From: a virus
Taxonomy: Duplodnaviria > Caudoviricetes
Virus record (IMG/VR): IMGVR_UViG_3300042888_002422
Location: 1-53,543 of that record
DNA length: 53,543 bases
Direction: 5' to 3' (one strand)
The notes under the pieces: generated by a model
Told to the model about the DNA's origin: nothing
Database searches by the model: none
The model's input: only the letters and a program-made list of their open reading frames with translations
Shown here: positions 543 through 48,193 of the stretch, piece by piece
Layout of the letters: every line of letters begins with the position of its first letter
Numbering within the stretch: position 1 is the first letter of the stretch
Program-made: the position numbers and the translations under genes

Positions 543-616
543 TTGCGTGGCTGGGACTCGAACCCAGGACCTCTAGGTTATGAGCCTAGCAAGCTAACCA
601 ACTGCTCTACCACACT
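543..616 (-). tRNA. tRNA-Met(CAT), initiator (fMet)-like, CCA end not encoded
   Basis: Reverse complement AGTGTGGTAGAGCAGTTGGTTAGCTTGCTAGGCTCATAACCTAGAGGTCCTGGGTTCGAGTCCCAGCCACGCAA folds as a cloverleaf; anticodon loop CTCATAA; T-arm CTGGG-TTCGAGT-CCCAG; A1xA72 mismatch, A11-U24 pair. Confidence 0.93.
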
Positions 617-745: not shown

Positions 746-2308
746 TTAGAATTGTGGGATTTCCTCGATCAACACAGTTCTTGATAAATCTTCAATAAAT
801 ACATCACATCTGTCTTTCATCCAGATTTCGTATCCTGGGAATTTGTTAGCACTTGACATACCTTGAGATTTAGCAAAACCTAAGTGATGACGAGTTCCAT
901 CAATATAACCCCATGTCATAGAAGGAGCACCTTTCATACGTACTTCTCTAATGTTATTTACCATTGATCCATCAGACATTGGAGAAACATCAAACACCAT
1001 AAATACTGGAGTAGATTTTTTGTTTTGTCCAAACTCTAAGTTAGTTTGTGGTAAATCTAATTCTTTTAAGTGAATTAATTCAATACGACCAGTTTCACGT
1101 GTAACCATTGCATCAAATGCAAAGTTGTAAGTGATATGTTGTCCTTCACCTTGCATGTATCTGTTTCCAGAATCAGCCATAAAAGTAAGACCAGAATTTA
1201 ATGCATCATTTTTTAAAGCTTGTTGGAATACATCAAATCCAGCCTCATTAGTGTACATTTTAACTGCTCTATCTTTTACATCCACTCTTCTGTAGAACAA
1301 ATCTCCAAATACTGAACGCAATAAGTTAGCAGAAAATTCTCCTCTGTTATATTGTACTAAGTTACCATTGTTACGCATTCTGTGGTAAACACCTGCAGAT
1401 GTACGTTTTACATTTTGTTGAGAACCTCCAGTTTTAACTGTACCTGGTTTAGCCCAAATCATACGTTTAACTTTCAATTCTAACATTGATTTACGCATCC
1501 AGAATTCAATAAATGGCTCCCATTTAACATCATTACGAGTTAAAGGTAATTGATTACGTCTTTGTGGTGCATATACTAAAATGTCTAATGGAGTTCCACT
1601 TGCATCTTTTAGCATTTTATCATCAGCCCATTCAGTGATTTTGTGCTCATAACCATATGCAGAACCTAAAGATTCAAACATTGTGATTTGCTCACCTAAT
1701 CTTGGAAGACCTAATAAGTCTTGATCAAACTCTCCTATAGCTGCATCAACTAATTCTAACTCAACTCCTACTTGTAAGAAAGTTCTAGTTACAAAATCTA
1801 CAGTTGGATTATCTGTAATTAATGTGAATGTGTATAAAAATCCTGCATTCCAAGGAGTTGGATCTTTGATTACATAAAATCTAGGACCATATTGACGAGT
1901 ACCTACAGAAACGATAGCATTTTTTGAAAATTCATTAGTATCTAATACTAAAGTAAATTCTTGTCCATCAATACCTGGTTTACCATTATCAAGTAAAGCT
2001 TGAGTAGTAGCAGTAATATCAATAATTTTAGGGAATTTATAAGGAACAGCAATTTGCCATTTCCAAGAATCACTATTATTATCTATGTAATAAGGTGTAG
2101 ACTTATTAATCATGTCTAAGAAATCATTGCTATACAATGAACTTTGTGTGTACAAGCTGATGATTTTTTTATCATAGTCAGCAGGTTCAGTAGAGTGAAA
2201 AGACTCTAAGTGATTGGAGTCAGTTAGTTTACCTACTGCACGCTTATCCATAGAAGCTACTCTAGCGTAAGTAAAACCAGTTAACCCTGGGATAGTTTGA
2301 ATACTCAT
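746..2308 (-). CDS. Major capsid protein (crAss-like, presumed HK97 fold)
   Basis: 520 aa; order terminase-portal-acidic protein-this gene; strongly biased codon usage; size and composition fit crAss-like MCPs. Confidence 0.85.
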   Translation of the reverse strand: MSIQTIPGLTGFTYARVASMDKRAVGKLTDSNHLESFHSTEPADYDKKIISLYTQSSLYSNDFLDMINKSTPYYIDNNSDSWKWQIAVPYKFPKIIDITATTQALLDNGKPGIDGQEFTLVLDTNEFSKNAIVSVGTRQYGPRFYVIKDPTPWNAGFLYTFTLITDNPTVDFVTRTFLQVGVELELVDAAIGEFDQDLLGLPRLGEQITMFESLGSAYGYEHKITEWADDKMLKDASGTPLDILVYAPQRRNQLPLTRNDVKWEPFIEFWMRKSMLELKVKRMIWAKPGTVKTGGSQQNVKRTSAGVYHRMRNNGNLVQYNRGEFSANLLRSVFGDLFYRRVDVKDRAVKMYTNEAGFDVFQQALKNDALNSGLTFMADSGNRYMQGEGQHITYNFAFDAMVTRETGRIELIHLKELDLPQTNLEFGQNKKSTPVFMVFDVSPMSDGSMVNNIREVRMKGAPSMTWGYIDGTRHHLGFAKSQGMSSANKFPGYEIWMKDRCDVFIEDLSRTVLIEEIPQF

Positions 2309-2348
2309 GTTATTATAATTTTTGTGTTAATTAATTGTTTATTGTTTT

Positions 2349-3587
2349 TTATTGAAACCAAGAACTTGGATTTGTTTTTGAAGTGGATGAAGATTTTTCT
2401 TTTGAAACTTGTCTTGCTACTTCTCCAAATAATGAATCTGTTTTTTTAGTTACACCAGTCTTTTGAATGGTTGATAATGTAGGATCTTTTTCTAATATTT
2501 TTAAAAGTAATCCCACTTTAACTTTCATGGCATGATTTTCAGGTCTTTTAAGATCTAATATAGTTCTATCAAAATCTGATAATGTTTCTCCTGTAGGAGT
2601 TTTCCATTTATCTACCAATAGAAAATCTTGTAACTCATTTACTAACTTAGGATTTAATGGAATACCATCAAACTCTTTTGCTTTCATTTTTTCTGTTAAA
2701 ATATTTTGTACATTATTAATGTATTGATTTTTAACACCTTGTTTTTGTTGTAACTCTTGTTCAGCTTTAGTTTCAATTTGAGCTAGTTTAGAAGCTTCTT
2801 TTTTAACTAATACTTTATGATGTTTAGTTGCAACAGTTTCAAGATCACCATAATTTTGTAGTCTTTCAATTTCTGAATCAATATCTTCATGATCAAAACC
2901 TTGATCTGCTAATGCTTGTTTCATTATTGTTTTTTGGTTTGCTTCTGTAGATAAATCCATTTCAGCAAAATTTACAACAGAATTATATGTATTAAAATAC
3001 TCTTTAGGATCTGCTCCTTTTACAAATATAGCCTCGAATGCATTTTGGTAATCTTCTCCAAATTGTCCTATAAAGTTTTCTACAATTTCTGATGCACCTT
3101 TTTTCTTTTCAGAATTAAACTTTTCTAAGAATTGTTCCGGTGTTGATATTGCTTCTTCATCATCGTCATCTTTATTAAAAACTCCAAGTTTATAAAGATC
3201 ATTTGCTAAAGCACTGAATTGTGTTCCTTCTGGAGCATCGGGTTCCTCTGTATTAGGTTCAGTAGGTTTTGCTTTAACAACTGGAGGGGTGTCAACATCA
3301 TCATCATCATCATTATCTCCTAAGAAATTAGATATTGCAGATTGAGATTTTGTATTATCATCATCTCCTTCTTCTATAGGTGTAATAGTTTTACCTTTAG
3401 GGACTGCTGGGGCTTCAGGAGCTGCAGCTGGAGTTGCTTCTTTAATGATAGGAGTTACATCTTCTGGATTAGAAGTAGATGTTTCTGGTTCAAACAAACC
3501 TTGAAGTAATTCTTGGTTTCCCATTCCCATATCCATTGTACCTTGAATGCTAAAAGCATCCATTGATATTTCTGTATTATCAGCCAT
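2349..3587 (-). CDS. Acidic scaffold-like/head assembly protein
   Basis: 412 aa, acidic low-complexity N-terminus plus coiled coil, located between portal and MCP as in crAss-like head modules. Confidence 0.65.
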   Translation of the reverse strand: MADNTEISMDAFSIQGTMDMGMGNQELLQGLFEPETSTSNPEDVTPIIKEATPAAAPEAPAVPKGKTITPIEEGDDDNTKSQSAISNFLGDNDDDDDVDTPPVVKAKPTEPNTEEPDAPEGTQFSALANDLYKLGVFNKDDDDEEAISTPEQFLEKFNSEKKKGASEIVENFIGQFGEDYQNAFEAIFVKGADPKEYFNTYNSVVNFAEMDLSTEANQKTIMKQALADQGFDHEDIDSEIERLQNYGDLETVATKHHKVLVKKEASKLAQIETKAEQELQQKQGVKNQYINNVQNILTEKMKAKEFDGIPLNPKLVNELQDFLLVDKWKTPTGETLSDFDRTILDLKRPENHAMKVKVGLLLKILEKDPTLSTIQKTGVTKKTDSLFGEVARQVSKEKSSSTSKTNPSSWFQ

Positions 3588-3626
3588 AATGTAGTTTGTA
3601 TTTAATAATTTGGTTTTATTTACGTG

Positions 3627-3657
3627 TAAAAATATAATGTATATATCTTATATCAAA
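3627..3657 (-). promoter_or_regulatory. Near-consensus Bacteroidota sigma70 promoter for the scaffold/capsid genes
   Basis: Minus strand TTTG-N19-TATTTTTA (consensus TTTG-N19-21-TAnnTTTG, one mismatch). Confidence 0.5.
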
Positions 3658-3730
3658 GGAATATATAACTTTATCTAATATTTTTTGTTATAATATAGCA
3701 TTAAAGTTATATTCCTTTAATAAAGAATTA

Positions 3731-6316
3731 TTATTTAGCCTTGTTTCTCCCTTTAGCATTTTCTTTTGCTACAGCAAGATCATTAGCCATATTTTCTCTA
3801 GCTACTGCAATCTTCTCTTGTTCTACAGCCATTTTAGTATCAAACTGTTTATTTTTTGAAGATATATCAGCCATTTTAGATTGATAATCTTTTGCAGCTT
3901 TATCTTGTTCATGTGTTAATTTATTCATTTCCATTATATCAGGAACTGCATTTTCATTAACATCTTCTGATCCCACTTTACCAAATCCTGTAGCTTGTAT
4001 AATAGCAATTTCTTTTCTTGAAATTCTATCTAGATCTTTTTGATAATCATCATGAGCAATTTGTTCTTCATGTTGTTGTGCAGCTTGTTGAATCTGAGCT
4101 TGAGCTTGTTCTTTTTGTTGATCAAGAGCTTGTTGTTTTTGTTGCATTTCTTGTTGTTGAATTGCTTGTTGTTGGTCTCTAAGATCTTTAAATACTTTTT
4201 TCATCTCTCTCATAGACTTAGTACTGTATAATTCAATAACATCATATATACTTCCACCATTTTGCATAAGAGGTTGTGCAAGTGCTCTGATTTCATTAAA
4301 CATTTGTGTATCTTCTGGTCTATTTGTAGGAAACACTTTTAAGTCACGAAATTTAAGATCTGTACCATTTACTTGTATAAATGCAGATAAGCCCTCAGAT
4401 GTAATATATGATAGCGTACTTTGTGGTTTAGAACTTTCTATATATTGTGATGCGTCTATTATTGCTTGATACAATTGTCCTTGTACATATTCGTGCGCTA
4501 CAAATAAAGGTTCTGTTTGTGAATAAGATTGTTGCATTGCTGTATTAGTACCTGTAGCTGTTTCTGAGGAAGATACATTACCCATACGTTGTTTAGACAT
4601 ACCTACTAATTCCCAACATTCCATTTTAATTTGTTGTGCTAAAGTATATCTAGATTGTATCTCTTGTGTACGTGTTAGATCAAGAGCTGTAAATTGGTTA
4701 AATGAACTTGGGGCTTTTAAGTTTTCAGGGCTATCATCAATAAATACTACACCTCTATTACGAGCTTCCATTTCCCACATATCAAGAGCATCTTGTGCAT
4801 CTCCATCTTTAGGAACAGGTACGTGTCTTAATGACATAAGTTGTACTTTACCAACTTCTTTTTCAAGTAATTTGTATAATTGATTCATACAAACATTATA
4901 TATTACTTGAAAAGGTTTCATAAGATCTATCAAGCTTTTTGCTTCTGTATTCTTAACTTCATGTGTTGTACCTATAATAGGGCAATAGTTTAAAAGATTA
5001 AAAGGTTTAATATGGTAAATATCTGGGCCTATTTTAATTCCTTGATACCATTGGTTAATCCAACCCCATTCAAGAGATTGTTGTGATGGCATAGTACCTG
5101 ATTTATAATTTTCATCAACAAGTGTTGATTGCTCATTACCCATTTCATCTATATAAATAAGTTTACCTATTTTCTTTTTAGAAATCCAATAGCTTCTTAC
5201 AACAACATATTTATACCCAAATGAACTTACATTATTAGTAAGGCCTAAAAAGTCTTTAAGTCCATCATTATTTTCTTTCATTTCTGATTCAATCATCATT
5301 CTTGTTTGTAAAACAAGTGGATCAAATGTATCATACTGAACAGAGTCTTGACCTTCTGGTGCATTAGGGTTACCAAGGTTAGATTCTCTAACATTAATTA
5401 ATCCATAATCTTGAAGAGAAGAACGTAAATGATCTATTTCTTCTTTAGTAATATCTGGTATAGCTTCAATAATTTCAGATAGTTCCATAACTTGCACAGT
5501 TCCAGCAGCATAAGCTCCTTGAGCTCTACCAGTTGGATCTGATACCCATTTCCTATCAGGAGTAGTAAGGAACCAAGTATTTTTTGGGTTAGCCACTTCA
5601 ATGTTAAAACCAAGTTTTGAGTTGTCTTCATATATATGATAAAATTCACGAGCACTAATTAACATATCTCTAAATGCATCTTCACCTTTTTCTTTAATAT
5701 TAAATTCTGCTTTCATGCATGTAAGAATATGGTTAGCCCATTTTTCTGCTACAGAAGTATAACTATCAAGTTGATCTTTAACTTGTTCCATTGACATTTG
5801 TTCAAGTTCCTCATCTTCTGGAATCTCTTGCCCGGACATTGTTAATTTTTGTAATATCTTTTCTTTAGCTTGTGCTAATATATATTTTTGAAGAGTTTCT
5901 GTTTTAAATTGTAATTCTTCAGCTTGACTATCATCATCAAAAGCTTTCACTCTATATGTATCAGGTCTTTTAGAACACTCACCAATTAATTCATTAATAG
6001 GTGTAGTAACAATAGAATAATGTTTTACATATGCAGGAAGGCCTATGTTAGTTTCTAACATGTCTACAAAACTCTTAGTATCAGGTTCTTGGTAGAAATC
6101 TTCTGCTCTAAGAATACCTTTTACAAGATCATAATTAGGAACAAATGTATCTCTATTTTTAATATATTCAGCATAAGCTTTGTTAGCAAAATAATCCATT
6201 GAATTTTTTATCCAACTTTCATCTTGTTTTTCTTTATCAGTTTTAAACTGATCAGGAAATATATTCAGATAAGCGTATCTGATTGTAGCATCTTTTGTAT
6301 ACCTAATTATTGCCAT
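3731..6316 (-). CDS. Portal protein
   Basis: 861 aa directly downstream of terminase; ELVGMSKQRMG...ETATG motif and Q-rich C-terminal coiled coil typical of large crAss-like portals. Confidence 0.85.
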   Translation of the reverse strand: MAIIRYTKDATIRYAYLNIFPDQFKTDKEKQDESWIKNSMDYFANKAYAEYIKNRDTFVPNYDLVKGILRAEDFYQEPDTKSFVDMLETNIGLPAYVKHYSIVTTPINELIGECSKRPDTYRVKAFDDDSQAEELQFKTETLQKYILAQAKEKILQKLTMSGQEIPEDEELEQMSMEQVKDQLDSYTSVAEKWANHILTCMKAEFNIKEKGEDAFRDMLISAREFYHIYEDNSKLGFNIEVANPKNTWFLTTPDRKWVSDPTGRAQGAYAAGTVQVMELSEIIEAIPDITKEEIDHLRSSLQDYGLINVRESNLGNPNAPEGQDSVQYDTFDPLVLQTRMMIESEMKENNDGLKDFLGLTNNVSSFGYKYVVVRSYWISKKKIGKLIYIDEMGNEQSTLVDENYKSGTMPSQQSLEWGWINQWYQGIKIGPDIYHIKPFNLLNYCPIIGTTHEVKNTEAKSLIDLMKPFQVIYNVCMNQLYKLLEKEVGKVQLMSLRHVPVPKDGDAQDALDMWEMEARNRGVVFIDDSPENLKAPSSFNQFTALDLTRTQEIQSRYTLAQQIKMECWELVGMSKQRMGNVSSSETATGTNTAMQQSYSQTEPLFVAHEYVQGQLYQAIIDASQYIESSKPQSTLSYITSEGLSAFIQVNGTDLKFRDLKVFPTNRPEDTQMFNEIRALAQPLMQNGGSIYDVIELYSTKSMREMKKVFKDLRDQQQAIQQQEMQQKQQALDQQKEQAQAQIQQAAQQHEEQIAHDDYQKDLDRISRKEIAIIQATGFGKVGSEDVNENAVPDIMEMNKLTHEQDKAAKDYQSKMADISSKNKQFDTKMAVEQEKIAVARENMANDLAVAKENAKGRNKAK

Positions 6317-8346
6317 TATGTAAATAATTTACGTTGTTTGTTATTAAAAATTCCTGAAGATTCAGAAAATAATCTATTTTTTTTCTTTTTTGCATATAAA
6401 GAATCAATCCTTATATCTTGTTTCTCTCCCACTCTTCCATATAATGGATCCATTTTCATAGCTAAAGCAATAGCAAGTTCTGCAGCAATAAGTCTATCTG
6501 TATTCAGGTCATCATTAAACTGAATGATTTCTTCAAGTAATACAGGGTCTAGTATTTTACTCACTCCTTGTATTTCTTTTATTGTATCCCCATCATCATT
6601 AGTTTCTTTATATATAGTTTCTTCCATATATTTTTTCAAGCAACCGTGAAGGAATGTTCTAATTTTTTCTGCTGATCTATGTATTCCATAATCTCTTCTA
6701 ACAGTAGTGTTTGGAACAATTTCTGTAAGCCATTGTGGTTGTCTTTCTAGATAATGAGCATCTCCTTTAGCTATCATATAATCTATAAAAGATATTTCAT
6801 CATTTTCACAAAGAGTTCTAGCATTATAATATTTAATTAAAAGTCTAGCTTGTTCTTCCCACACTTCTTTTTTGTCTGGTCTAGCACAATAACTAGCAAC
6901 AAACATATCTTGGTAATTTTCTCCTGATATAGCATTCATTCTTTTATAAATGTATACAGCTCCAAGAGAACTTGAGTATGCAGATTTACCTTGTCTATAT
7001 GGATCCACTCCTGCTACATACAAACCATATGGAGGATTTGCAATTGGAAACTCATATATAACAACAGGAGCATCTTTGCTATCCATTTGTTTTAATGGAA
7101 AATTAGAAATAGGCATTCTATCTGTAAACTCATGAGCAACAGTACCTTCATTATTATACAAAACAACAGGAGTTCCTGTTTTTTCTAAATGTAACAATCT
7201 CTGTTGTTGTCTTTTAGCTGACTCAACATCAAACATATTTTCTTGTGAAGAAAGAAAACATTCCTCTTCTGTTAAAGGAAAATACATTATTTGTTTTAAA
7301 TATAATGTTCTATCCGGGTTAGCTTTTTTAGCCTCTCTTTCTTTTGTAATAGTAGCTAAAGCTTTTTCTTTATTAGCTACATTAATAATTATATTAGCAA
7401 GATCATTATCTTTTGGTAGCTCTATACCTTTTTCTTTAATTAACCATTGATCTAGTGGCATTAGTTCTTTACAATCTTGTCTATATATACCAGATAAAAA
7501 TAACCCTGTTTTTTTATTTGTAATAGGGTCTTCAATTGCTAAGAAATTATTGGCATCCGGATTATAGAAAAAATTCTCAGCATCTTTACCATGGTCAAAT
7601 GAACCACCTGTTCCTACAAGAATAGGAACAGCTCTCCAGCCATTCTTACCTTTAAATGCAGGTTCTGCTGCAGCAAAAGCATTAGCAAATCCATATTTTC
7701 CCACCTCATCCATAATAAAAGATTTTGCTGTAGTACCAGCTGCCACCTCTGTTTTATTACCATCTTGTGCATTACGAATAACTATATAACTCCATATTTG
7801 ATCTTCACCATCAGGAGACTTATAGCCCAGTCTTACTTGGTTACTTCTCCAAGTTTTATCAAGGCGTGGAATTTTAATACCACCCCATAAATTATTAAGA
7901 CCAAAATCAACTTTATCTTTTAATAAAGACAAGTCATTATCGTTACCACAAACAATTACATTCTGTGTATTTTGAAACAATGTAGCATTCATACCAAAAT
8001 AGGATGCTTCCATTTCACTCTTTCCTCCTTGTCGCCCACCTATTTCAATATACCCTTTTCTTTCCTTCTTGCAATTTTCTAAATGTTCAGCTCTTATCCA
8101 TTCATTATCACGAAGCTCAGGGAGGCGTTTTACACGTATATCATTACCATATTGATCTACTTCATCAATACGTATCCACCAATGGTTTATATGCCAGTAT
8201 AGCCACCCTGAGATGTGTACACCATTTACATTAACACCACCTGTACATTTCTCAACTTCCCAATCTATTAATTGCTTAAACTCTTCGGACCCAGGAGGAG
8301 GAAGAGTTTTTATATTACTAAAGAATTCTGTAGATTTTATATCCAT
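6316..8346 (-). CDS. terL: Terminase large subunit
   Basis: Walker A-like GGRQGGKS, Walker B FIMDEVG, coupling motif VGTGG, RNase H-like nuclease YVAGVDPY ... DRLIA. Confidence 0.93.
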   Translation of the reverse strand: MDIKSTEFFSNIKTLPPPGSEEFKQLIDWEVEKCTGGVNVNGVHISGWLYWHINHWWIRIDEVDQYGNDIRVKRLPELRDNEWIRAEHLENCKKERKGYIEIGGRQGGKSEMEASYFGMNATLFQNTQNVIVCGNDNDLSLLKDKVDFGLNNLWGGIKIPRLDKTWRSNQVRLGYKSPDGEDQIWSYIVIRNAQDGNKTEVAAGTTAKSFIMDEVGKYGFANAFAAAEPAFKGKNGWRAVPILVGTGGSFDHGKDAENFFYNPDANNFLAIEDPITNKKTGLFLSGIYRQDCKELMPLDQWLIKEKGIELPKDNDLANIIINVANKEKALATITKEREAKKANPDRTLYLKQIMYFPLTEEECFLSSQENMFDVESAKRQQQRLLHLEKTGTPVVLYNNEGTVAHEFTDRMPISNFPLKQMDSKDAPVVIYEFPIANPPYGLYVAGVDPYRQGKSAYSSSLGAVYIYKRMNAISGENYQDMFVASYCARPDKKEVWEEQARLLIKYYNARTLCENDEISFIDYMIAKGDAHYLERQPQWLTEIVPNTTVRRDYGIHRSAEKIRTFLHGCLKKYMEETIYKETNDDGDTIKEIQGVSKILDPVLLEEIIQFNDDLNTDRLIAAELAIALAMKMDPLYGRVGEKQDIRIDSLYAKKKKNRLFSESSGIFNNKQRKLFT

Positions 8347-38010: not shown

Positions 38011-39006
38011 ATGAGTATACAAGGAGAACATAGAAAAAGATTAACTAAAGAAGCTATACTTGAAAAGATTTCTCAATTTGATATTTACAAAATGTATTTT
38101 GGTAATTTTGAATTAAACAAAGTTACACGTAACAAATTCAGAGGTGAAGGTGATCCTTCTTTTATCATTGGTACTAAATTTGGGGAAATAACTCATAAAG
38201 ATTTTAGTGATGATAAATGGAAAGGCAATTGTTTTAGTCTTGTACAACAAATTTATAATTGTAATTATTTTGATGCATTAAGAATTATTGACAAAGATTT
38301 TAGTCTTGGTATTTCTTCAGAAATTACTAAAGATTATAAAAAAATAATCAGTGAATATGTACAACCTATAATATCAGAAATTTCTCCACCATTAATTCAA
38401 GTGATAACAAGAAAGTTTAAACAAGAAGAACTTGACTATTGGAACAAATACAATCTTGATATAGAAGATTTAAAGAAAAACAATGTTTATTCAATTAGCA
38501 AATTATACTTAAATAGACAATTATTTTCATTAAAAGAAACTGAATTAAGATTTGGGTATAAATATGGTGAATATTGGAAGATATATAGACCTTTTGAGGT
38601 TTCTAAATTAAAATGGATGCCTAACAATGTACCTTTAACTACTTTAGATAGTAAAGAAGCTATAATTGATTGTACAACAGCTTGGATAACTAAAAGCAGA
38701 AAAGATAGAATGGTGTTAAGTAAATTATATCCTAATGTTTTATCTACACAAAATGAAAGTATAGCTTGCTTTTCAGAAGAAAATCTTAAATTTATAAAAG
38801 ATAATTCTAAAAAACAAGTAATATTTTATGATTCAGACCCTGCAGGAGTAAAAGCTTCAAAACAAATAACTAAAGAATTTGATATGGATTATTGTAATAT
38901 ACCTAGAAGTTATCTTAGTGATGGTGTAGTAGATCCTGCAGATCTTGTTAAAGAATATGGAATAAATAAACTAGAACAAATTTTAATTAAAAAAAAATTA
39001 TTATGA
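38011..39006 (+). CDS. dnaG: DnaG-type primase (crAss-like TOPRIM)
   Basis: FR.E..PSF...KDF N-terminal domain, KIYRPF, ITKSRKD, FYDSDPAG, DPAD. Confidence 0.85.
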   Translation: MSIQGEHRKRLTKEAILEKISQFDIYKMYFGNFELNKVTRNKFRGEGDPSFIIGTKFGEITHKDFSDDKWKGNCFSLVQQIYNCNYFDALRIIDKDFSLGISSEITKDYKKIISEYVQPIISEISPPLIQVITRKFKQEELDYWNKYNLDIEDLKKNNVYSISKLYLNRQLFSLKETELRFGYKYGEYWKIYRPFEVSKLKWMPNNVPLTTLDSKEAIIDCTTAWITKSRKDRMVLSKLYPNVLSTQNESIACFSEENLKFIKDNSKKQVIFYDSDPAGVKASKQITKEFDMDYCNIPRSYLSDGVVDPADLVKEYGINKLEQILIKKKLL

Positions 39007-39375
39007 AAACAACAGAAGAAAGAATAGAAGAAGATGAACAATTTGAAATGTTAGAAGAACAAATTAAAGAAGAAGTAGAATGGTTACAATTAACTAATAG
39101 AAAAGATGAATTAGAATGTATTAGTATAGAAAATTTAGAATCTATACTTAGTAAATTTTTTGGAAGAAAATTATATTTAAAACAAAAATAATATGGGAAA
39201 TCAATTTGCAGTAATGGTAGAAGGAAAACAAGGTCCTTCAAAATTGCATTATAGTTTAGAAGAGGCTACAACAGAAGCTTTAAGACTTGCTAGAGCAACT
39301 AGACAAGATGTTTATATATTAAAAGTAGTAGCTAAAGCAGAAATATCAGATGTTAAAATAATAAATTACTAAAAC

Positions 39376-40146
39376 ATGGAAACATATAACACAACAAAAG
39401 ACATATTAACACACACAGCTGTTCCTATGGCCACAAGGACTTACAAACCAGTAAGTCATACACAATTAATGGATCTTACATTAGAAAGTATTCATAGTGC
39501 AGGATTTACACTTGATAAAGAAATGTATACAAGTGCTAGAGATGGTAAAGTTGCTAATGGTAAATTTACTATTCAAAATGTAGCTGACAAAGAAATGCAA
39601 TTACAAATAGGATGGCAAAATAGTTATGATAAATCTTTATCATTAAAATTTGCTATTGGTACTAAAATATTTATTTGTAGTAATGGATGTGTAAGTGGGG
39701 ATTATGGTGCTTTCAAAAAGAAACATCAAGGAGAAATACAAACATTTACACCTACAGCTATAACAGATTATATTAAAGATGCTGGAGAAGCTTTTAGAAG
39801 AATGCAAGATGAAAGAGAATTTATGAAAACTATTGAATTAGATAGAAAAACTCAAGCACAATTAATAGGTAGAATGATTGTTGAAAAACAATTTATTGAA
39901 AGTACACAGCTTAATCTTATAAGAGCTGAATTAGATAAACCAACGCATTCTTATGGTGCTCCTAACAGTTTATGGGAATTATATCAATTTACTACATTTA
40001 GTATGAAAGAAGTACATCCAAGTTTATGGATGAATAATCATATTGATGCACATAGTTTCTTTGTGGAAGAATCAGGGCTTCATACATTACCTACATTTGT
40101 TGAAGATACTTCTTATGTTGATGAATTAGCATTATTTGAAGTGTAA
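39376..40146 (+). CDS. DUF932-like protein
   Basis: YKPVSH...NSYDKS...FICSNG...KKKH...SLWELYQ pattern. Confidence 0.7.
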   Translation: METYNTTKDILTHTAVPMATRTYKPVSHTQLMDLTLESIHSAGFTLDKEMYTSARDGKVANGKFTIQNVADKEMQLQIGWQNSYDKSLSLKFAIGTKIFICSNGCVSGDYGAFKKKHQGEIQTFTPTAITDYIKDAGEAFRRMQDEREFMKTIELDRKTQAQLIGRMIVEKQFIESTQLNLIRAELDKPTHSYGAPNSLWELYQFTTFSMKEVHPSLWMNNHIDAHSFFVEESGLHTLPTFVEDTSYVDELALFEV

Positions 40147-40844
40147 TGGATTGGAGTAAGTTTAAAACAAAATTTCATACTAGTTGGCATTCTAAAATAC
40201 AAAAATTTATAGAAAGCCCAGAATGTGATGAGATATTTGCTTTTCTTAATTCTAAAAAAAATGAAGGGGCTAAAATAGCTCCTTCATCTTTTTGTTTATT
40301 TAGGGCATTTAAAGATACAAGTCTTGATGAATTAAAACTTGTTATAATTGGGGAAAATCCTTATAATATATTTGTAGAGGATGCTCCTATTGATACAGGA
40401 ATATTATTTGGAGCTAATAATAGAATACAGCCAAATTTACAAGAATTTTATGCAGGAATTGAAAATGAACTATACAATGGATTAGATCTTAGTATTATTT
40501 ATGATTATGATCTTACGTATTTAACTTCTCAGGGTGTTCTTATGATACCAAGTAGTTTTACTATTGAAAGAGATGCTGAAAAAGGTCATAATAAAATATG
40601 GAAACCTTTTATGGAATATATATTAAAAGAAATAATAGCAGACACTGGTGTACCAATATTATTTTTAGGAAGAAGTAAACAATATATGCCAGCAATGGAA
40701 CAATCAAATTATTGTTATTCTCTTCCTATGCCAGTATTCGGTAATATATGGAATACAGAAGGAACTATTAAAGCTATCAATTATGATATTTGGAGTACAA
40801 ATGAAGAAGTCATTTATTGGAGAGAAATAGAATTACCATTTTAA
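40146..40844 (+). CDS. Uracil-DNA glycosylase family-1-like protein with divergent active site
   Basis: IAP...FRAF..T...LKLVIIGENPY, QGVLM, H..IW.PF; lacks the GQDPY Asp and the HPS motif. Confidence 0.7.
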   Translation: MDWSKFKTKFHTSWHSKIQKFIESPECDEIFAFLNSKKNEGAKIAPSSFCLFRAFKDTSLDELKLVIIGENPYNIFVEDAPIDTGILFGANNRIQPNLQEFYAGIENELYNGLDLSIIYDYDLTYLTSQGVLMIPSSFTIERDAEKGHNKIWKPFMEYILKEIIADTGVPILFLGRSKQYMPAMEQSNYCYSLPMPVFGNIWNTEGTIKAINYDIWSTNEEVIYWREIELPF

Positions 40845-40855
40845 TAAAAACAAAT

Positions 40856-41908
40856 ATGAAAACAATATATAAAAAAGACAGTAAAGGAAATACTAGATAT
40901 TTAACTATTTCTACTGAAGACAATTTAATAATACAAGAATCAGGTATAGTAGGGACTATTAACCCTATATATAATAAAAGTGCTTGTGAGGCCAAAAATG
41001 TTGGAAGAGCTAATAGCACTACACCAGAAGAACAAGCTGTTTTAGAGGCTAATTCTAAAATTACAGAAAAGATGAGATTGGGGTATTTTACTTCTATTGA
41101 AGAAGCTCAAGAAAAAGGAGGCAAAGATTTTTTGTTACCTATGTTAGCTAAAGACTATAAAAAAGAATTTAAAAAAGTAACTTATCCATGTTATGTTCAA
41201 CCTAAATTAGATGGTATGAGATCATTAGCTACTGAAGAAGATGGTTTTATGTCAAGAACAGGAAAAGCTATTGATACTATTAATCATATAGTATTAAATG
41301 ATCTTGAAAATTCTGTTTTAGATGGTGAATTATATGCTCATGGAATTTCATTCCAAGAAAATATGAAACTTCTTAAAAAGTATAGAAAAGAAGAAACAGA
41401 ACAAGTTAAGTATCATGTTTATGATGTTGTTATGGATGCTCCTTTTTCTGAAAGACATAATTATTTATTTTCTTTAGCTATAGAAAATCAAAATATTAAA
41501 TTAGTACCTACGTATTTAGTCAATAATGAAGAAGAAATGAAAGAGTATCATGCTCAATTTGTATCTCAAGGGTATGAGGGCACTATGATAAGACACTCTG
41601 ATGAAGGGTATTCTGTAAACAAGAGAAGTTCTCAATTACTTAAATACAAAGACTTTATTGATGAAGTTTATACAGTTAATGAAATATGGCCTTCTGAAGC
41701 TAGACCTGATCAAGGTATAGTTGAATGTGTAACTTCTGAAGGTATTACTTTTACTTGTGGTATGAAATTTAGTCATGCTGATAGAGAAGAAATTTTAATT
41801 AATAAAGAAAACTATATTGGTAAAATGGCAGAAATTAGATTTTTTGAATATACAGATGGAGGATTGCCGAGATTTCCCATTTGTCATGGTTTCCGTTTAG
41901 ATGCCTAA
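40856..41908 (+). CDS. lig: ATP-dependent DNA ligase
   Basis: PMLA, QPKLDGMR (KxDG), LDGELY, YHVYD, YEGTMIR, LLKYK, PRFP. Confidence 0.93.
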   Translation: MKTIYKKDSKGNTRYLTISTEDNLIIQESGIVGTINPIYNKSACEAKNVGRANSTTPEEQAVLEANSKITEKMRLGYFTSIEEAQEKGGKDFLLPMLAKDYKKEFKKVTYPCYVQPKLDGMRSLATEEDGFMSRTGKAIDTINHIVLNDLENSVLDGELYAHGISFQENMKLLKKYRKEETEQVKYHVYDVVMDAPFSERHNYLFSLAIENQNIKLVPTYLVNNEEEMKEYHAQFVSQGYEGTMIRHSDEGYSVNKRSSQLLKYKDFIDEVYTVNEIWPSEARPDQGIVECVTSEGITFTCGMKFSHADREEILINKENYIGKMAEIRFFEYTDGGLPRFPICHGFRLDA

Positions 41909-41933
41909 ACTAAAAATTTTATTTACTGAAAGG

Positions 41934-41964
41934 TTTGGTATATTAAAAATTCCTACTATCTTTG
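41934..41964 (+). promoter_or_regulatory. Consensus Bacteroidota sigma70 promoter for the LAGLIDADG gene
   Basis: TTTG-N19-TATCTTTG. Confidence 0.75.
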
Positions 41965-41980
41965 TATTAAAATTAATATT

Positions 41981-42721
41981 ATGATACAATATTTAGCAGG
42001 AATTTTTGATTCAGAGGGGTATGTAAGAATAAGAAAAGTAAATAATTTTTACACTGTAGAAGCTAAAATCTACATTACTTCATTAGAAGTAATAAGTAAA
42101 TTTGCAGAGATTTATGGAGTAGAAATAAAATCTGAAGATAGGGGTAAACATAAAAAATTAGCTTATTATGTTGCTTTTGGTAAAGGACAATTACTGGGTA
42201 CTTCTTTTATTGAAGATATTTTACCTTTTCTTAATGAAAAAAGACTCCAATTACAAGAAGTTAAAAATCTTCTTTCAGGACAAGATAAAGAAGAATGTTA
42301 TCAAAGATACCTTTTAACTAAAAAAGAGTTTACTCATCCTATACAGAATGAATTATCTTTTGAGTATTTAGCAGGTATTATTGATGGAGATGGTTGGGTA
42401 AGTATGCACAATGCAGGAAAAGGAAAGTCTTTTTACAATAAATACTCAGTAGGATTACAACAAAGATATAAACCTTTAATTGACTATATGAATAGATTTA
42501 AAGGAAGCCAAACCCACACTTGTAAAGTATATGACTACCAATCTCATGTACAAACCTATTCTTGGCAAAATACTACAGCATCTATATTACCTTTTTTAAA
42601 AAGTATAGAGCCTTTTTTAATAGAGAAAAAAGAAAAGTGTGAAACATTAATTAAATACATTGAAAAGTATGAAGAATTTAGGCAGTACTCAAAAGAAGTA
42701 CTTACTTGGTGGAAAGAGTAA
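41981..42721 (+). CDS. Free-standing double-motif LAGLIDADG homing endonuclease
   Basis: YLAGIFDSEG and YLAGIIDGDG, each followed by a PFL.EK motif. Confidence 0.92.
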   Translation: MIQYLAGIFDSEGYVRIRKVNNFYTVEAKIYITSLEVISKFAEIYGVEIKSEDRGKHKKLAYYVAFGKGQLLGTSFIEDILPFLNEKRLQLQEVKNLLSGQDKEECYQRYLLTKKEFTHPIQNELSFEYLAGIIDGDGWVSMHNAGKGKSFYNKYSVGLQQRYKPLIDYMNRFKGSQTHTCKVYDYQSHVQTYSWQNTTASILPFLKSIEPFLIEKKEKCETLIKYIEKYEEFRQYSKEVLTWWKE

Positions 42722-42722
42722 T

Positions 42723-42755
42723 CCTGTATGTGTAGGATTTAGACTTGATAAATAA
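42723..42755 (+). pseudogene. Displaced second copy of the ligase 3' end
   Basis: CCT GTA TGT GTA GGA TTT AGA CTT GAT AAA TAA = PVCVGFRLDK*, versus the ligase end PICHGFRLDA*. Confidence 0.85.
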
Positions 42756-42810
42756 AGTTTTAAAATTATTATAATTAAATTTCTTATATTTGGGGCTAAT
42801 TAATAATATT

Positions 42811-43200
42811 ATGGCAAAAAGAGTATTAGTCCCAAAAATAAGAAATGCAGGAACATTAAGTGAAAGTGCATTCTGGTCTTTTATTAGAAGTTCTTTAAGA
42901 AGAAGAACAATGGTGTGGTTACCTATAAGGCAATGTAAGTTAAATGCTAAAAGACCTTATAAAGGAATTAACAAACGTCAAAAGTTTGAATACAAATGCA
43001 ATATTTGTAAATTGTATTTTCCTGAAAAAGAAGTTAGTGTAGATCATATAAAACCTGTAGGAACATTAACATGTGCGGCAGATTTACCTTTATTTGTAGA
43101 AAATCTTTTTTGCGAAGAACACAATTTACAATGTATTTGTAGTAAATGCCATGATGCAAAAACATTAAAAGAAAAACAAACTAAAAAGAAAACATTATGA
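42811..43200 (+). CDS. HNH endonuclease
   Basis: CNIC...VDHI...NLQCICSKCHDAKT. Confidence 0.85.
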   Translation: MAKRVLVPKIRNAGTLSESAFWSFIRSSLRRRTMVWLPIRQCKLNAKRPYKGINKRQKFEYKCNICKLYFPEKEVSVDHIKPVGTLTCAADLPLFVENLFCEEHNLQCICSKCHDAKTLKEKQTKKKTL

Positions 43201-43363
43201 TAAAAAATATTATAAGTAGAATTACAATGGTAAAAACATCTCAAGAAGGATTTTGGGATAGTATATCAAATAAAAAAATATATTATTGGCAAGATTGTTA
43301 TTTTAATATATACATGGCATGTTCAAGATGGGAATATAGAATTAAACTTAAATAAATTAAAAA

Positions 43364-43981
43364 GTGCAAAACTTAATAACGATTAATAAAGAACCTTCAT
43401 TTACTGAAATTTGGAGAGAAGGAGCAATTACACATGATGGAATAGAACATAAATTTTGGCTTATACATCCACAAGGTGTAGATCCTAATGGTTATGAATA
43501 TGAAGTTGATGTAAGATGGTTTTTTCAAAGAGTACCAAAAGAAGTAAGAGCTATGGCTCCACAAATTATAGAAGCATTTAAACAAACATTATGAAAACAT
43601 GGATATGGGAAAATGAACAACTCTTTAGTATAAACAGAGAGTTGCAAAGACTAATAGATGATAAGATAGTTAAAACTGTTGTATCAATGTCATTAGTAGC
43701 TACAGAAGATCCAAGAGGATCATTGTCATTATATAGTGCAATATTAATTTATAAGTAATATGAAAACAATAATTCACGTAAATCAACATGTGATAAAAGC
43801 CAATAGAAAAAATGGTGTAAAAAATCCTGTTCTTACAGTTAAAAATTACAAAGAAAATAAATATGCTCATGAAGTTGATATAAAAGGTCCTAGTAAGGTG
43901 GTATATAGTCCAGACAAACCATTAAGTTGTGGAGCACATGTTTGGATTGAGACATACGACGGAGTAACAATAATTAAATAA
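43364..43981 (+). CDS. Small hypothetical proteins (43364-43594, 43760-43981)
   Basis: ORF track; MKTIIHVNQH...LSCGAHVWIET looks like a conserved phage protein. Confidence 0.65.
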
Positions 43982-43984
43982 ATT

Positions 43985-44815
43985 ATGATAACAGGTGTAA
44001 AAAAAGAATTACCAATTGATGATATAAGAGTTGTTAAGAATGCTCCAAAAAAATATGATGATACAGAAAGAGTATTATTAATAGATGCTGATAGTATAAT
44101 GTATACAGCAACATATTTTCCAGAAGATTCATTAATTGATTTTCCTACAGAAGAGGAACAAATAGAAGAAGCTAAATACAGAACTAGAACCAAACTACAA
44201 GAAATACAAAATAATGTAGAAGAATGGTTCAATATTGTTCAGACCTATATATTTATAGGTGGAAAAAATAATTTTAGATATAAAATATTTCCAGAGTATA
44301 AAGCTAATAGAGCTACAGCTATTAAAAGTCCATATTTACCAATTGTAAGACAATATATGATAGATGAACTATTAGCTATTGAATCTCATGGAGGAGAAGC
44401 TGATGATTATATTATAGATGGTATACAAATAAGTGAAGGAAATTGCATTGTGAGCTCTATAGATAAAGATGTTTTATATCATGCAGCAAATGTACCTTTG
44501 TATGATTATAGAGGGCATACAAACACTCTAGGAGAGTTTAAATATATATCTACTAAAGAAAGTAGACTTGCCAGAGCTACACAAGTTGTAACAGGGGATT
44601 CTACTGATGGTATTCCAGGAGCAAAAGGTGTTGGAAAAGCTTGGTGTGATAAAAATATGCATATTGATATGACAGATTATCAATTTATAAAAGCAATTTA
44701 TCAAGCTTATTTAAAAGCTACAAAAAATGATGTTATAGAAGCCAAAAGACAAATAAGACTTTATTATAAAGTTTTAAAATTACACACACTAGAGGAGATG
44801 AAAAAATTAATATAA
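43985..44815 (+). CDS. 5'-3' exonuclease / flap endonuclease (phage RNase H-like)
   Basis: LLIDAD, FRY...YKANR, EADD, SIDKD, GDSTDGIPGAKGVG. Confidence 0.92.
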   Translation: MITGVKKELPIDDIRVVKNAPKKYDDTERVLLIDADSIMYTATYFPEDSLIDFPTEEEQIEEAKYRTRTKLQEIQNNVEEWFNIVQTYIFIGGKNNFRYKIFPEYKANRATAIKSPYLPIVRQYMIDELLAIESHGGEADDYIIDGIQISEGNCIVSSIDKDVLYHAANVPLYDYRGHTNTLGEFKYISTKESRLARATQVVTGDSTDGIPGAKGVGKAWCDKNMHIDMTDYQFIKAIYQAYLKATKNDVIEAKRQIRLYYKVLKLHTLEEMKKLI

Positions 44816-44816
44816 T

Positions 44817-47048
44817 ATGGAAATAAAAAAAACTATAACAAGTATTTTTATGGTTCCTACATTACAAATACCTAAAAATTGTTTAAAAGATAATGGATTT
44901 ATTAATGCTTATAGCAATGATAGCACTAAAGAAGAACAATATAAAGATTGTATTTATATTCTTTTTAAACCACCTAATTTAGATAAATTTAGAGAATTTT
45001 TAGAATCTGAGTATGAAAGAACTACAAATATAATAGAAGATTATGACTATGAAAAAGGTTATGTAGTAGTAGTTTATAAATTAAATGAAAAGTTTAAAAA
45101 AGATTTTGAATTAATTAAACGAGGTAAATACTCTAAAACATCTATTGAATATCAAAATATATTTCCTAAAGTTGTTAAAATTTTAAATAATGGTTTACAT
45201 AAAGATGAACTATCTCTTCAAATTAGAATATTTAAAAAGACAACAGATCTTGTAGAATTCTGGGAAGATAAATTAGGTGTAAGTTTTGATGAAGAACAAG
45301 AAGTTTGGGAAGGATTTGAGCCTGATAAAGAAATATTAATTTTAGAAAAAATAAAAGAATATGAATAATCAAGAAATATTAAATAACTTAATAAAACAAT
45401 TTGGCCTAAGCCAAAATATGGTTCAATTTTGTAAAATAGCTTTTACAATGTATGATATAAAATATACAGCAGCTAAAACAGAAAGTACAAAAAATGAATA
45501 TGAATATGATCGTAACTGGTGGCTTGATGCTGCGCAACAATTAACAAATAACAATGAAATCAATAGACTTATTAAATAAATACTCTTTAGCAACAAAAGT
45601 TATTAAAGACTGGTATATGAAAGAAATGTTAAAATCTTTAAAAGACAATGACATTCCAGAAGATTTTAAACAATCTTTGTTAAAAGAAGGTGTAAGTAAT
45701 GAAAGACTTGCAGAAGTAATAGATATTCAACCTAGAAATCTGTTTGATATATTTGATGAATGTAATTTATCTATAAATATTATAAGAACTCCTAATAGCA
45801 AAGAAGAATGGGAATGGGAGATAATGCAAGCATCTGCTGAAAATTTTGTTTGTAAATCTAGAAAAGAAGCAGAAACACATGCTGTAGAAGCTGCATTTGA
45901 AATTTTAGAGAGTAAATTAACACCAATTGATTTACCAAAATTAGAAGAATAATTAGGAATAATCAGGGAAATAAATTATATTTGTTTCCCTAAATTTAAA
46001 AAATATAAAAATGACAACAACAAAAGAATTTAATACAGAATATGCAAATTATATAGAAACAGGTTTTGATGGGATGGAAATTGGTGTGCCTTCAGTGATA
46101 CATTATATAAATACAGTGTTTAAAGACCTTGTTAAAATTCCAGGATTTAAATATTCACAAATTAAAACTAAATTTGGTTTACCTAGAGTTTATACTAATT
46201 TAGATGAATTACTTCCATTTGTAGGAAGAATTATTAATAATGAGTTAGAAGAAAAAATTAGTCTTTTATTAAAAGTAGAATTTGAAGTGGAACAAAGATT
46301 ATTAAGTTTAAATATAGACAAAAATGGAAAACCTCTTCAATCTCTTTAAAGGATTATTAATAACATTTCCTACTTATAAAGGAATAGTGTGTGGGTATGA
46401 TGAAAGTAGATTTATTCTTGCTGTAGAAACTAAAGATGATAAAAAGTTTTTTAGAAAATTACAATATGATGTTATACTTCCTGAATATAAAGATTCTAAG
46501 TATAGATATATATTTATCAATGAAAGTGATATATTAAAACAACATTCACTATGACATTAAAAGAAATATCTATTAAATATAATATACAAACTGATACATT
46601 AATAAGAAGAGCAGGTAGATTAAAATTTATACGTGTAAATGGAAAATACACAGAAGAACAAGTTAAATTAATTAGTCATCCGGTTAATCTATCTTTAAAG
46701 ACTATATTACTGATATATGAATTTAAAGAAAGGTATCCATCACTATCTCCAGTAATGATAGCAGATATGTTTAATATAAATCAATTAAAAGTTGTAGATC
46801 TTTTTTTAAAAGATTTTATAATAGTACCATCTAAAATGAATTAATTTTTGTACATTAGCATTATGAAATTTACTAATATTATGAGTAACAAAGACTATAT
46901 AGAGCATGTAGATTACTATTTAGAAGATGGTAGAGTCTATTTTACGGAAAAATATCTCAAAGAAAGAGAAGGTTGTTGTGGACTAGAACATTGTAGACAT
47001 TGTCCATATACAAAAAAAATAAAAGATAATACAGAATTAAAAAAATAA
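44817..47048 (+). CDS. Run of hypothetical proteins (44817-45368, 45361-45579, 45554-45952, 46011-46349, 46324-46554, 46551-46844, ~46863-47048 with CC..CRHCPY)
   Basis: Packed same-strand ORFs. Confidence 0.7.
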
Positions 47049-47164: not shown

Positions 47165-48193
47165 ATGGCAAAAGTAAAAGTAGTAAAAGAAGGAATGGAT
47201 CTAGTACTTGAAGGACTAGAAAAGAAGTATGGTTTAGGTAGACTTGTACCAGAAGATTTAACAATCGTTAGTACAGGGAGTTTACAATTAAATCAAGCAA
47301 TGGGTGTTGGAGGAACAGCTGTAGGAAAGTTTATAGAACTTTTTGGAGGTGAATCAAGTGGTAAAACTACACTAACTTTACATCAAATGGCAGAATATCA
47401 AAAAGCTTTTCCTAATAAAAAAGTAGCTTTATTTGATTATGAGCATGCCTTTGATAAAAAGTATGCGAATGCATTAGGTGTTGATGTAAAAAATTTATTA
47501 ATATATCAACCAGAAACTCAAGAAGAAGGTTATGATATGATTTTAGCTTTAATAGAAAATGATATTATTTCATGCTGTGTAATTGATAGTCAATCTGCAG
47601 CAATGCCTAAAGCTATTTTACAAGGAGAAATGGGAGATGCAACTATTGGTTTACAAGCTAGAATCAATAGTAAGTTTTGTATGAAAGTAAAAGGTTTATT
47701 AGCTAATCATAATTGTACATTATTTGTAATCTCTCAAATGAGAGATGCAATTGGTTCTATGGGTGAACCTACTACAACTACAGGAGGAAAAGCTATTAAA
47801 TTTTACGCTGATGTAAGATGGAAAGTTTGGAAAATGAATGATAAAATTAATGAGCTTAATAAAACTACTGTAGATGTAATTAAAAATAAATTAGCATCAC
47901 CATTTGGCCAAGCTAAATTTGCTATACAATGGGGACATGGTATTGATAAACTTACAGAAATTATTGATTATGCTGTAGAATTTGATTTAATCAAAAAAGG
48001 AGGAGCTGGTTGGTTTACATTAGAAGATGGTAGTAAACTACAAGGTATGGATAAAATGAAAGATTATTTAGAAGAAAACTTTGAAATACTATTAGATATT
48101 GAAAAACAAGTATTAAGTAAATTAAATAACGAAGAATCTGATGTTGAAGAAGATACTATTCTAGTTATTGAAACAGACCTTTCTGAATTATGA
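47165..48193 (+). CDS. recA: RecA-family recombinase
   Basis: STGSLQLNQAMGVGG, GGESSGKTT, DYEHAFD, IDS, GLQAR, TTGGKAIKFYADVR, KNKLASPF. Confidence 0.95.
   Translation: MAKVKVVKEGMDLVLEGLEKKYGLGRLVPEDLTIVSTGSLQLNQAMGVGGTAVGKFIELFGGESSGKTTLTLHQMAEYQKAFPNKKVALFDYEHAFDKKYANALGVDVKNLLIYQPETQEEGYDMILALIENDIISCCVIDSQSAAMPKAILQGEMGDATIGLQARINSKFCMKVKGLLANHNCTLFVISQMRDAIGSMGEPTTTTGGKAIKFYADVRWKVWKMNDKINELNKTTVDVIKNKLASPFGQAKFAIQWGHGIDKLTEIIDYAVEFDLIKKGGAGWFTLEDGSKLQGMDKMKDYLEENFEILLDIEKQVLSKLNNEESDVEEDTILVIETDLSEL

Follow-up and report, generated by a model that had tools for sequence, protein, structure and literature searches.

Mobile endonuclease open reading frames (mORFs) of fungal mitochondria bring a foreign C-terminal sequence to the gene in which they settle and displace the native one (PMC3630166; see also PMC7487136). 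Such elements are described in atp6 of Allomyces, in atp6, atp9, cox2, and nad3 of Glomus, in atp9 of Rhizopus, and in cox2 of Mortierella (PMC3630166). Free-standing endonuclease genes are also well known in phages, where the cited passages place them between genes, in introns, or in inteins (PMC2988022, PMC10448857, PMC12724721), and at least 8 of the 20 phage LAGLIDADG genes of one paper were intein encoded. Here, we analyze a DNA ligase gene and the LAGLIDADG homing endonuclease gene that follows it in IMG/VR virus record IMGVR_UViG_3300042888_002422 (Duplodnaviria; Caudoviricetes). The whole stretch analyzed, positions 1 to 53,543 of that record (53,543 nucleotides), is referred to as the window. 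An original prediction, made from the sequence alone and without database searches, had proposed that the endonuclease element inserted into the ligase gene and supplied a recoded C terminus, by analogy with the replacement of gene ends in fungal mitochondria; that precedent is real (PMC3630166). The locus quite probably represents an intron-less homing cassette with gene-end replacement in a phage DNA ligase gene.

The ligase gene encodes a protein with Pfam matches to DNA_ligase_A_M (70 bits) and DNA_ligase_OB_2 (42.4 bits), both of which exceed the cutoff, and residues 289 to 347 cover positions 13 to 66 of the 66 positions of the OB_2 profile, i.e., up to its last position. The C terminus reads GGLPRFPICHGFRLDA followed by a stop codon, and its final 33 bases (41876 to 41908) are referred to below as the functional tail. 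A spacer of 72 bases (41909 to 41980) leads to the endonuclease gene, whose stop codon (42719 to 42721) is followed by a T (42722) and by a second version of the ligase end, PVCVGFRLDK and a stop codon (42723 to 42755), referred to as the leftover. The coordinates that the original prediction had given for the ligase end, the endonuclease, and the leftover were all correct on reexamination (Table 1). The inserted unit, comprising the functional tail, the spacer, and the endonuclease gene, is located 33 bases ahead of the native ligase stop. The breakpoint can be placed only to within 3 bases, since both edges of the unit carry TCC.

Table 1. Coordinates of the features of the window
Feature	Position	Strand	Remarks
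ATP-dependent DNA ligase coding sequence	40856-41908	+	350 aa, complete with the present tail; Pfam
Native part of the ligase gene	40860-41877	+	Homologous to endonuclease-less relatives (BLASTN; X5 contigs)
Imported replacement tail PICHGFRLDA and stop codon, in rare codons	41876-41908	+	In frame with the ligase core
Inserted unit (tail, spacer, and endonuclease gene)	41876-42722	+	847 bp; X5 joint, homology breaks
Promoter-like motif: TTTG, 19 bases, TATCTTTG (TAnnTTTG)	41934-41964	+	Conserved across cassette copies
Free-standing double-motif LAGLIDADG homing endonuclease gene	41981-42721	+	246 aa; Pfam
Leftover, displaced native ligase tail: T, then PVCVGFRLDK and stop codon	42722-42755	+	Out of frame with the endonuclease gene
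Major head protein, portal, and large terminase	746-8346	-	Resemble those of crAss-type, Flavobacterium, and Cellulophaga phages
tRNA-Met gene	542-616	-	

Scanning IMG/VR with the window ligase identified 29 ligase loci (L001 to L029). Five of these were distant (31 to 38% identity), with tails of other types, and 24 shared the PRFP tail family, with the endonuclease gene present in L008 and absent from 23 loci. All 23 endonuclease-less relatives ended in a PVCVGFRLDK-type tail, with DK as the last residues in 22 of them and DR in one; the tail was exactly PRFPVCVGFRLDK followed by a stop codon in 10 relatives and PVCHGFRLDK in three. An ending similar to PICHGFRLDA was found in none of the 23. 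The tail expected for relatives lacking the endonuclease gene had been predicted in advance, and these endings agree with it. BLASTN alignments between the window and nine endonuclease-less relatives ended at position 41877, two bases into the Pro codon, and homology restarted at 42722 to 42755 for six relatives. The leftover, counted as the 34 bases from 42722 to 42755, was 94 to 97% identical to the ligase 3' ends of L003, L004, L009, L010, L011, and L022, with a difference at 1 of 33 bases in the comparison with L003, L009, and L022. For the 23 relatives as a whole, 1 to 16 of the 33 positions differed from the leftover.

Comparison of window positions 38011 to 45368 with L001 to L029 revealed that the ligase is an isolated module, displaying 72 to 84% nucleotide identity from about 4 bases past the ATG to the stop codon. 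In L001 to L010 and L015, the 4 kb on either side of the ligase contained no homologue of any of the 12 ORFs neighboring the window ligase, and the few weak matches of these ORFs (24 to 50% identity) were located only at more distant loci. The 9-kb loci of the relatives had no real match elsewhere in the window. From these comparisons, the ligase gene itself seems to move among otherwise unrelated phage genomes. As a separate observation, the ligase match is in two pieces, spanning 1,260 bases for 345 residues, in phage records H26 to H30 (Klebsiella phage KB57 and relatives and Escherichia phage AV124), which suggests that these ligase genes may hold an insertion of about 200 bases.

Parts of the window were matched by 24 metagenome runs from lakes, freshwater, and sediment, none of which was an RNA run, and contigs of four runs (X3 to X6), originating from four studies, were placed on positions 40500 to 44000. 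In X5, a contig of 151 bases (depth 6) matched positions 41747 to 41874 with no mismatch, continued with a single C, and then matched positions 42723 to 42744. The X5 contigs covered 40500 to 41776 and 42933 to 44000 with 0 to 6 differences per contig, with 0 to 1 differences from positions 40969 to 41874, and their depth was 0 over positions 42021 to 42722. The 151-base contig shows an empty allele of the same phage lineage, which brackets the unit at 41876 to 42722; the extent proposed for the mobile unit in the original prediction (about 41876 to 42722) corresponds to this joint. Contigs of two other runs spanned the junctions of the window without any difference (41651 to 42053 in X4 record 13, 42418 to 42757 in X4 record 15, and 42359 to 42959 in X3 record 5). 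Since the X3 and X4 contigs span both junctions with no difference, the arrangement is not an artifact of a single assembly. Run X6 contained a variant of the cassette-bearing form, with 14 differences over 883 bases. An additional X4 contig matched the window from position 42722, its upstream part being the end of a different ligase body directly joined to the tail, and it may be read as the empty allele of another relative. A further joint in X3, from 40870 to 43340, has a 23-base side and unknown letters between.

Querying IMG/VR with the endonuclease protein alone returned no match, the chosen peptides not being conserved, and alignment queries recovered L008, L031, and L035. The metagenome scan for the endonuclease returned only the contig already represented by L031, and the sole match of the genome scan was a distant LAGLIDADG gene (27% identity) of an Armatimonadota metagenome-assembled genome. 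Among 50,697 phage records, there were five weak partial matches (27 to 30% identity) and no close cultured relative. In L008, the ligase has 68% amino acid identity to that of the window and ends in PVCVGFRID, with CGC for both Arg codons; it is followed by the spacer motif, an endonuclease gene (74% amino acid identity), its stop codon, a T, and the leftover SVCVGFRFDK with its own stop codon. Homology between the window and L008 extends from 40860 to 42755, i.e., from the start of the ligase to the last base of the leftover, and nothing outside this region is shared. Thus, another, distantly related phage carries the same cassette at the corresponding ligase junction. L031 and L035 carry members of the endonuclease family (55% and 52% identity, respectively) directly after their ligases, also with the spacer motif, and the ligase tails are noncanonical (PVCVGFRLTGD and PVMVGIREDRTKGDK, respectively, each followed by a stop codon). 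All four copies with DNA context (window, L008, L031, and L035) are located directly after the ligase, establishing a constant link of the endonuclease family to this ligase, and the leftover is kept in two of the four. A candidate decayed leftover behind the endonuclease gene of L031 was rejected as too weak, and GGTTTGG after the ligase stop codon of L014 was dropped as a candidate remnant, since by eye it falls inside the start of another small ORF. L031 is a viral contig of 123 kb, which also carries, about 470 bases past the endonuclease gene, a transfer-messenger RNA gene (4241 to 4620, plus strand; Rfam RF00023, 65.8 bits, E value of 6.9e-24).

The endonuclease family comprised 36 members of 245 to 286 residues at E values up to 0.001 in a large protein collection, and all the ORFs were full length. 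One member known only as a protein, P0007 (286 residues), ends in SEEVLVGFRLDK (VGFRLDK at the very end), the endonuclease ORF reading in frame into the ligase tail, and its start also runs through an apparent translated spacer. Comparison of the endonuclease genes of the window (41981 to 42721) and of L008 (5106 to 5858) revealed a mosaic, with 49 to 68% identity in the 5' half and 85 to 96% identity in the 3' half. The last 123 codons differed at 31 of 369 bases, versus 291 of 1,044 bases for the ligases. Since the 3' half is far less diverged than the ligase, it appears to have been exchanged recently, which would speak for continuing horizontal movement. If each domain reads one half-site, the window and L008 enzymes may have one half-site in common and a different second one.

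The functional tail and the leftover differ in codon usage, as the original prediction had noticed in describing the codons of the former as rare in this genome and those of the latter as typical AT-rich ones. The GC content of the window is 27.8%. In its other plus-strand ORFs of at least 100 codons, CCG, CCC, TTC, CGT, and GCC account for 1, 3, 10, 5, and 3% of their respective codon families. The 10 codons of the functional tail scored in the lowest 0.56% of 8,418 ten-codon windows, and the leftover scored 0.60 versus a median of 0.55 for the same windows. The functional tail and the leftover differed at 15 of 33 bases, exceeding the difference of the tails of 22 of the 23 relatives from the leftover. 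Immediately 5' of the functional tail, 128 bases are identical to the X5 empty allele. Divergence of the functional tail in place is implausible, since these adjoining 128 bases are identical while 45% of the tail bases differ. A similar break was observed with L015, which is almost identical to the window over about 35 codons ahead of the break and differs in nearly every codon past it. In FRLD, Arg is encoded by AGA in 20 of the 23 empty alleles, whereas the window uses CGT and L008 uses CGC. Judging from these features, the functional tail must have been foreign and have arrived with the cassette.

The ratio of tail divergence to gene-wide divergence, calculated with the consensus of the empty alleles (n = 23) as the reference, was 1.88 for the window, 0.97 for L008, 0.97 for L031, and 0.80 for L035, and the median for the 23 empty alleles was 0.53. 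Divergence of the tail was higher in the four cassette alleles than in the 23 empty alleles (one-sided Mann-Whitney P = 0.003, a value that is descriptive only, the sequences being related), and the P value was unchanged after removal of two duplicate loci. In the tail of L031, 9 of 13 codons were changed synonymously, many of them to codons ending in G or C. The functional tail looks as if it had been selected to differ. The term "recoded" used in the original prediction needs to be qualified: the tail is foreign and is written in rare codons, and it was more likely carried along from a donor ligase than recoded in place.

The endonuclease matched the Pfam families LAGLIDADG_3 (28 bits, cutoff of 22.5) and Hom_end (27.7 bits, cutoff of 21.1), and the match to LAGLIDADG_1 (18.6 bits) was below the cutoff of 23.1. 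Only LAGLIDADG families were found in this protein by Pfam, with no GIY-YIG or HNH domain. Its two motifs are YLAGIFDSEGY (residues 4 to 14) and YLAGIIDGDGW (residues 129 to 139), and G7, D10, E12, D135, G136, D137, and G138 were invariant in all 32 aligned family members. We take E12 and D137 to be the catalytic acids. The AlphaFold model (predicted local distance difference test score of 94.2 and predicted template modeling score of 0.90) confidently displayed two pseudosymmetric domains with an alpha-beta-beta-alpha-beta-beta-alpha topology. The top Foldseek matches in the PDB were I-OnuI, I-AniI, and I-SmaMI (E values of about 1e-11 and template modeling scores of 0.6 to 0.68), and a profile search of PDB sequences returned I-CreI, I-MsoI, I-AniI, and I-OnuI. 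With its invariant presumed catalytic acids and confident two-domain model, the endonuclease looks active. Enzymes of the LAGLIDADG class cleave site-specific targets of 18 to 22 bp and leave 4-base 3' overhangs.

The promoter-like motif of the spacer was kept in all four cassette copies despite divergence of the neighboring sequence. The original prediction had called it a perfect Bacteroidota promoter. Its conservation supports part of this claim; the pattern is not rare, however, with 3 matches in the window versus 4.3 expected, i.e., no enrichment, and the name itself relies on a consensus that the motif presumably fits. An extended version of the motif occurred in 52 IMG/VR stretches, and about 22 of 53 instances were followed within 30 bases by an ORF of at least 30 codons starting with ATG. 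Among these 52 stretches, the endonuclease gene was present only in the three contigs already known. A scan for sigma-70 sites found none before the endonuclease gene, and it found no terminator.

We propose the following mechanism for the putative homing cassette. The endonuclease would cut ligase genes lacking the cassette at a site spanning the insertion point (approximately AGA TTY / CCT GTA). The break would be repaired from a cassette-bearing, coinfecting genome by phage recombination proteins, with the ligase body acting as the left repair arm. Cassette-bearing genomes would be immune through the splitting of the site by the insertion and the presence of a differently spelled tail beside the left half-site, and the native last 33 bases now lie displaced and untranslated behind the endonuclease gene. 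Because the leftover is intact in two genomes, the recognition site should not be located wholly within the last 33 bases and should cross the insertion point. From the spelling of the tail, we infer that it confers resistance to cleavage. The ligase would be completed by the imported tail, with no need for splicing of RNA or protein. The window encodes a UvsX-like recombinase (47165 to 48193, plus strand; E value of 1.6e-70), a DNA polymerase, a helicase, and a 5'-3' exonuclease, and functions of this sort are used for homing by T4 (PMC2988022).

A bolder and distinctly tentative reading, which we favor less than its opposite, is that the leftover might be the right-hand homology arm of the cassette, and thus a working part of the element rather than debris. 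Since ligase-bearing phages share no detectable homology beyond the gene, the leftover may be the sole right-hand homology available. Consistent with this possibility, homology between the window and L008 stops precisely where the leftover ends, the sequence of the leftover is nearly unchanged (1 of 33 bases in comparison to three relatives), and the ligase is an isolated shared module in unrelated surroundings. If true, a cassette composed of a resistant tail, a promoter, an endonuclease gene, and a sensitive tail would carry both of the arms that it needs and could drive itself, perhaps dragging the ligase along, among otherwise unrelated phages.

Several observations weigh against gene-end replacement by a homing cassette as proposed here. 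A donor ligase with the tail PICHGFRLDA was not found among the 29 ligase loci, only four genomic copies of the cassette are known, and all the loci are metagenome assemblies. Among the 12 bases to the right of the junction, only 2 distinguish the functional tail of L008 from the consensus, and recoding of the right half-site is therefore not uniform. The leftover was not found in L031 and L035, i.e., in two of the four copies; the element therefore does not always include it, and the endonuclease gene looks simply intergenic in these two contigs. The evidence for the X5 empty allele consists of one short contig of 6-fold depth and of the absent coverage over the endonuclease gene, and the joint extends for only 22 bases on its right side, under the advised 30. 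X5 could also represent a secondary precise loss rather than an allele that was never invaded.

Such a loss is central to one alternative, in which the cassette is ancestral in this lineage and X5 results from a later precise deletion between the tail copies, leaving no evidence for an uninvaded target. The TCC present at both edges could mediate the deletion, and loss belongs to the usual life cycle of homing endonucleases (PMC13619312). Three bases provide very little homology for recurrent precise loss, however, all 23 endonuclease-less relatives have the same uninterrupted tail, and the leftover is nearly identical to the tails of these relatives whereas the functional tail is not. We therefore regard this alternative as very unlikely. 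Somewhat more credible, although still improbable, is a fossil, i.e., the product of a single past homing event or illegitimate insertion, the endonuclease no longer cutting or moving and being passively inherited or otherwise used. Scans of IMG/VR, metagenomes, and genomes provided only four genomic copies, two of them devoid of the leftover, and the 5' half of the endonuclease gene is only 49 to 68% identical between the window and L008. These observations would fit a fossil. They are opposed by the invariance of the presumed catalytic residues in 32 of 32 members, the full length of all the ORFs, the occurrence of both presence and absence of the cassette on otherwise identical flanks, and a divergence between the window and L008 that is about 3-fold lower for the 3' half of the endonuclease gene than for the ligase. 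Tandem duplication of the tail in place, followed by divergence of the upstream copy with nothing imported, would account for the missing PICHGFRLDA donor among the 29 loci. It would leave unexplained the difference at 15 of 33 tail bases next to 128 bases that are identical in the cassette and empty alleles, as well as a change running toward codons that the window genome avoids, and we consider it highly improbable.

Removal of the 847 bases at the RNA or protein level, by a group I or group II intron, an intein, or translational bypass, would make the leftover the true C terminus of the ligase. In favor of this reading, the ligase and the endonuclease ORF share a reading frame, and the base before the unit is a T, as at the 5' splice site of group I introns. 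Against it, group I introns end in G, and the unit ends in T. No intron family was matched at E values up to 10 in positions 40000 to 44000 (Rfam) or at gathering score in L008, L031, and L035, and the approximately 105 bases located outside the endonuclease ORF (tail plus spacer) fold no better than shuffled sequences (z = -0.33). Neither a ribozyme core recognizable by covariance models nor a need for splicing to restore the frame was found. The stop codons TAA (41906 to 41908) and TGA (41927 to 41929) separate the ligase and endonuclease frames; because both are in frame, no intein is possible, and Pfam detected no Hint match. The upstream tail already completes the OB domain of the ligase with its own stop codon, and L031 and L035 offer no downstream tail as a splicing partner. 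The claim that the locus leaves no room for a ribozyme or an intein was upheld by the absence of an intron RNA family match and by the stop codons separating the frames, and removal of the unit by splicing or bypass thus has next to no probability in our estimate. We therefore retain the homing cassette with a replacement gene end as the best explanation of the locus.

The terminase of the window matched 121 phage records, including 30 Bacteroides, 29 Flavobacterium, and 9 Cellulophaga phages as judged from the first word of the record names. The matches listed include crAss-type phages, and the best single match (41%) was a Leptolyngbya phage. The host is likely a member of the Bacteroidota, as deduced from these similarities. 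CheckV estimated the completeness of the record at 46%. Downstream of the leftover, at a distance of 55 bases, an ORF (42811 to 43200, plus strand) encodes an HNH endonuclease (PHROG phrog_1985, E value of 1.7e-21; the Pfam HNH matches were below the cutoff). Two nuclease genes thus follow the ligase in a row, and contigs of the cassette-less X5 strain still cover positions 42933 to 43178. In run X6, positions 43074 to 43307 and 43542 to 43775 were covered at a summed depth of about 130 to 580 versus 0 to 30 elsewhere, by contigs differing from the window at many letters, and the small ORFs at these positions seem to be common to much more abundant phages in that sample.

If this interpretation is correct, the delivery of a spare gene end would not be peculiar to organelles but would also occur in a freshwater crAss-like phage, and gene-end replacement would let an endonuclease gene settle inside a coding region without a ribozyme or an intein. 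The locus offers a natural pair of putative cut and uncut alleles distinguished by mostly synonymous differences, providing a ready map of the recognition bases, and it adds a small uncharacterized LAGLIDADG family (about 36 members, 245 to 286 residues) with a predictable target. For the annotation of phage genomes, short out-of-frame copies of gene ends should be looked for behind nuclease genes.

Comparison with known systems delineates what is shared and what is particular to this locus. Like I-OnuI, I-AniI, and I-SmaMI, monomeric enzymes of solved structure, the window endonuclease is predicted to adopt a two-domain fold with two LAGLIDADG helices and is of the monomeric type. It differs from these enzymes, which are encoded in fungal mitochondrial introns, by its low sequence identity (15 to 22%), its shorter length (246 residues), and its free-standing gene. 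For mobE in nrdA of Aeromonas phage Aeh1 and mobA between T4 genes 60 and 39, the host gene is reportedly left in two pieces whose products reassemble. These cases also have an endonuclease gene inside a DNA metabolism gene without an intron or intein and with retention of function; in contrast, the window ligase stays in one piece, and the cassette would supply its replacement end.

The free-standing Seg and Mob endonuclease genes of T4-type phages (SegF, SegG, SegB, and MobE) resemble the window gene in their location beside a presumed target and in their variable presence (here, after the ligase in four of four copies and absent from 23 relatives). They spread by double-strand break repair with phage recombination proteins and coconversion of the flanks, a likeness that would extend to the mechanism proposed above. 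The T4-type enzymes belong to the GIY-YIG or HNH class and sit between genes, whereas the window gene is of the LAGLIDADG type, and seven T4 genes are described as promoterless cassettes (PMC2988022), whereas a promoter-like motif is conserved in the window cassette. The words "duplicat" and "LAGLIDADG" do not occur in that T4 review, which describes no duplication of a gene end (PMC2988022). A full-text literature search found no case of gene-end duplication by an endonuclease gene in a phage, although most subscription journals and supplements are outside its scope, and this result is not proof of absence.

Fungal mitochondrial mORFs provide the most extensive parallel. In both cases, an endonuclease ORF, mostly of the LAGLIDADG type, has entered a protein gene close to its 3' end, a divergent inserted copy of the C-terminal region is in phase with the gene core and restores a full-length product, and the native C-terminal region is located downstream of the ORF, nearly identical to that of ORF-less relatives. 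ORF-less alleles exist in close relatives in both cases (here, 23 of the 24 loci of the tail family plus X5, with its 22-base side). For Glomus atp6, the identity is 63.5% between the two copies versus 91.2% to the relative; the corresponding values are 55% versus 97% in the window. The differences are that the host of the window element is a double-stranded DNA phage rather than an organelle, that the duplicated piece is only 33 bases long, that genomes sharing the target gene share nothing else nearby, and that the endonuclease gene has a promoter-like spacer and is not fused to the ligase, whereas some Glomus mORFs are fused in phase. Together, these comparisons support the conclusion that the window contains what appears to be the fungal mitochondrial kind of gene-end replacement, here in a phage.

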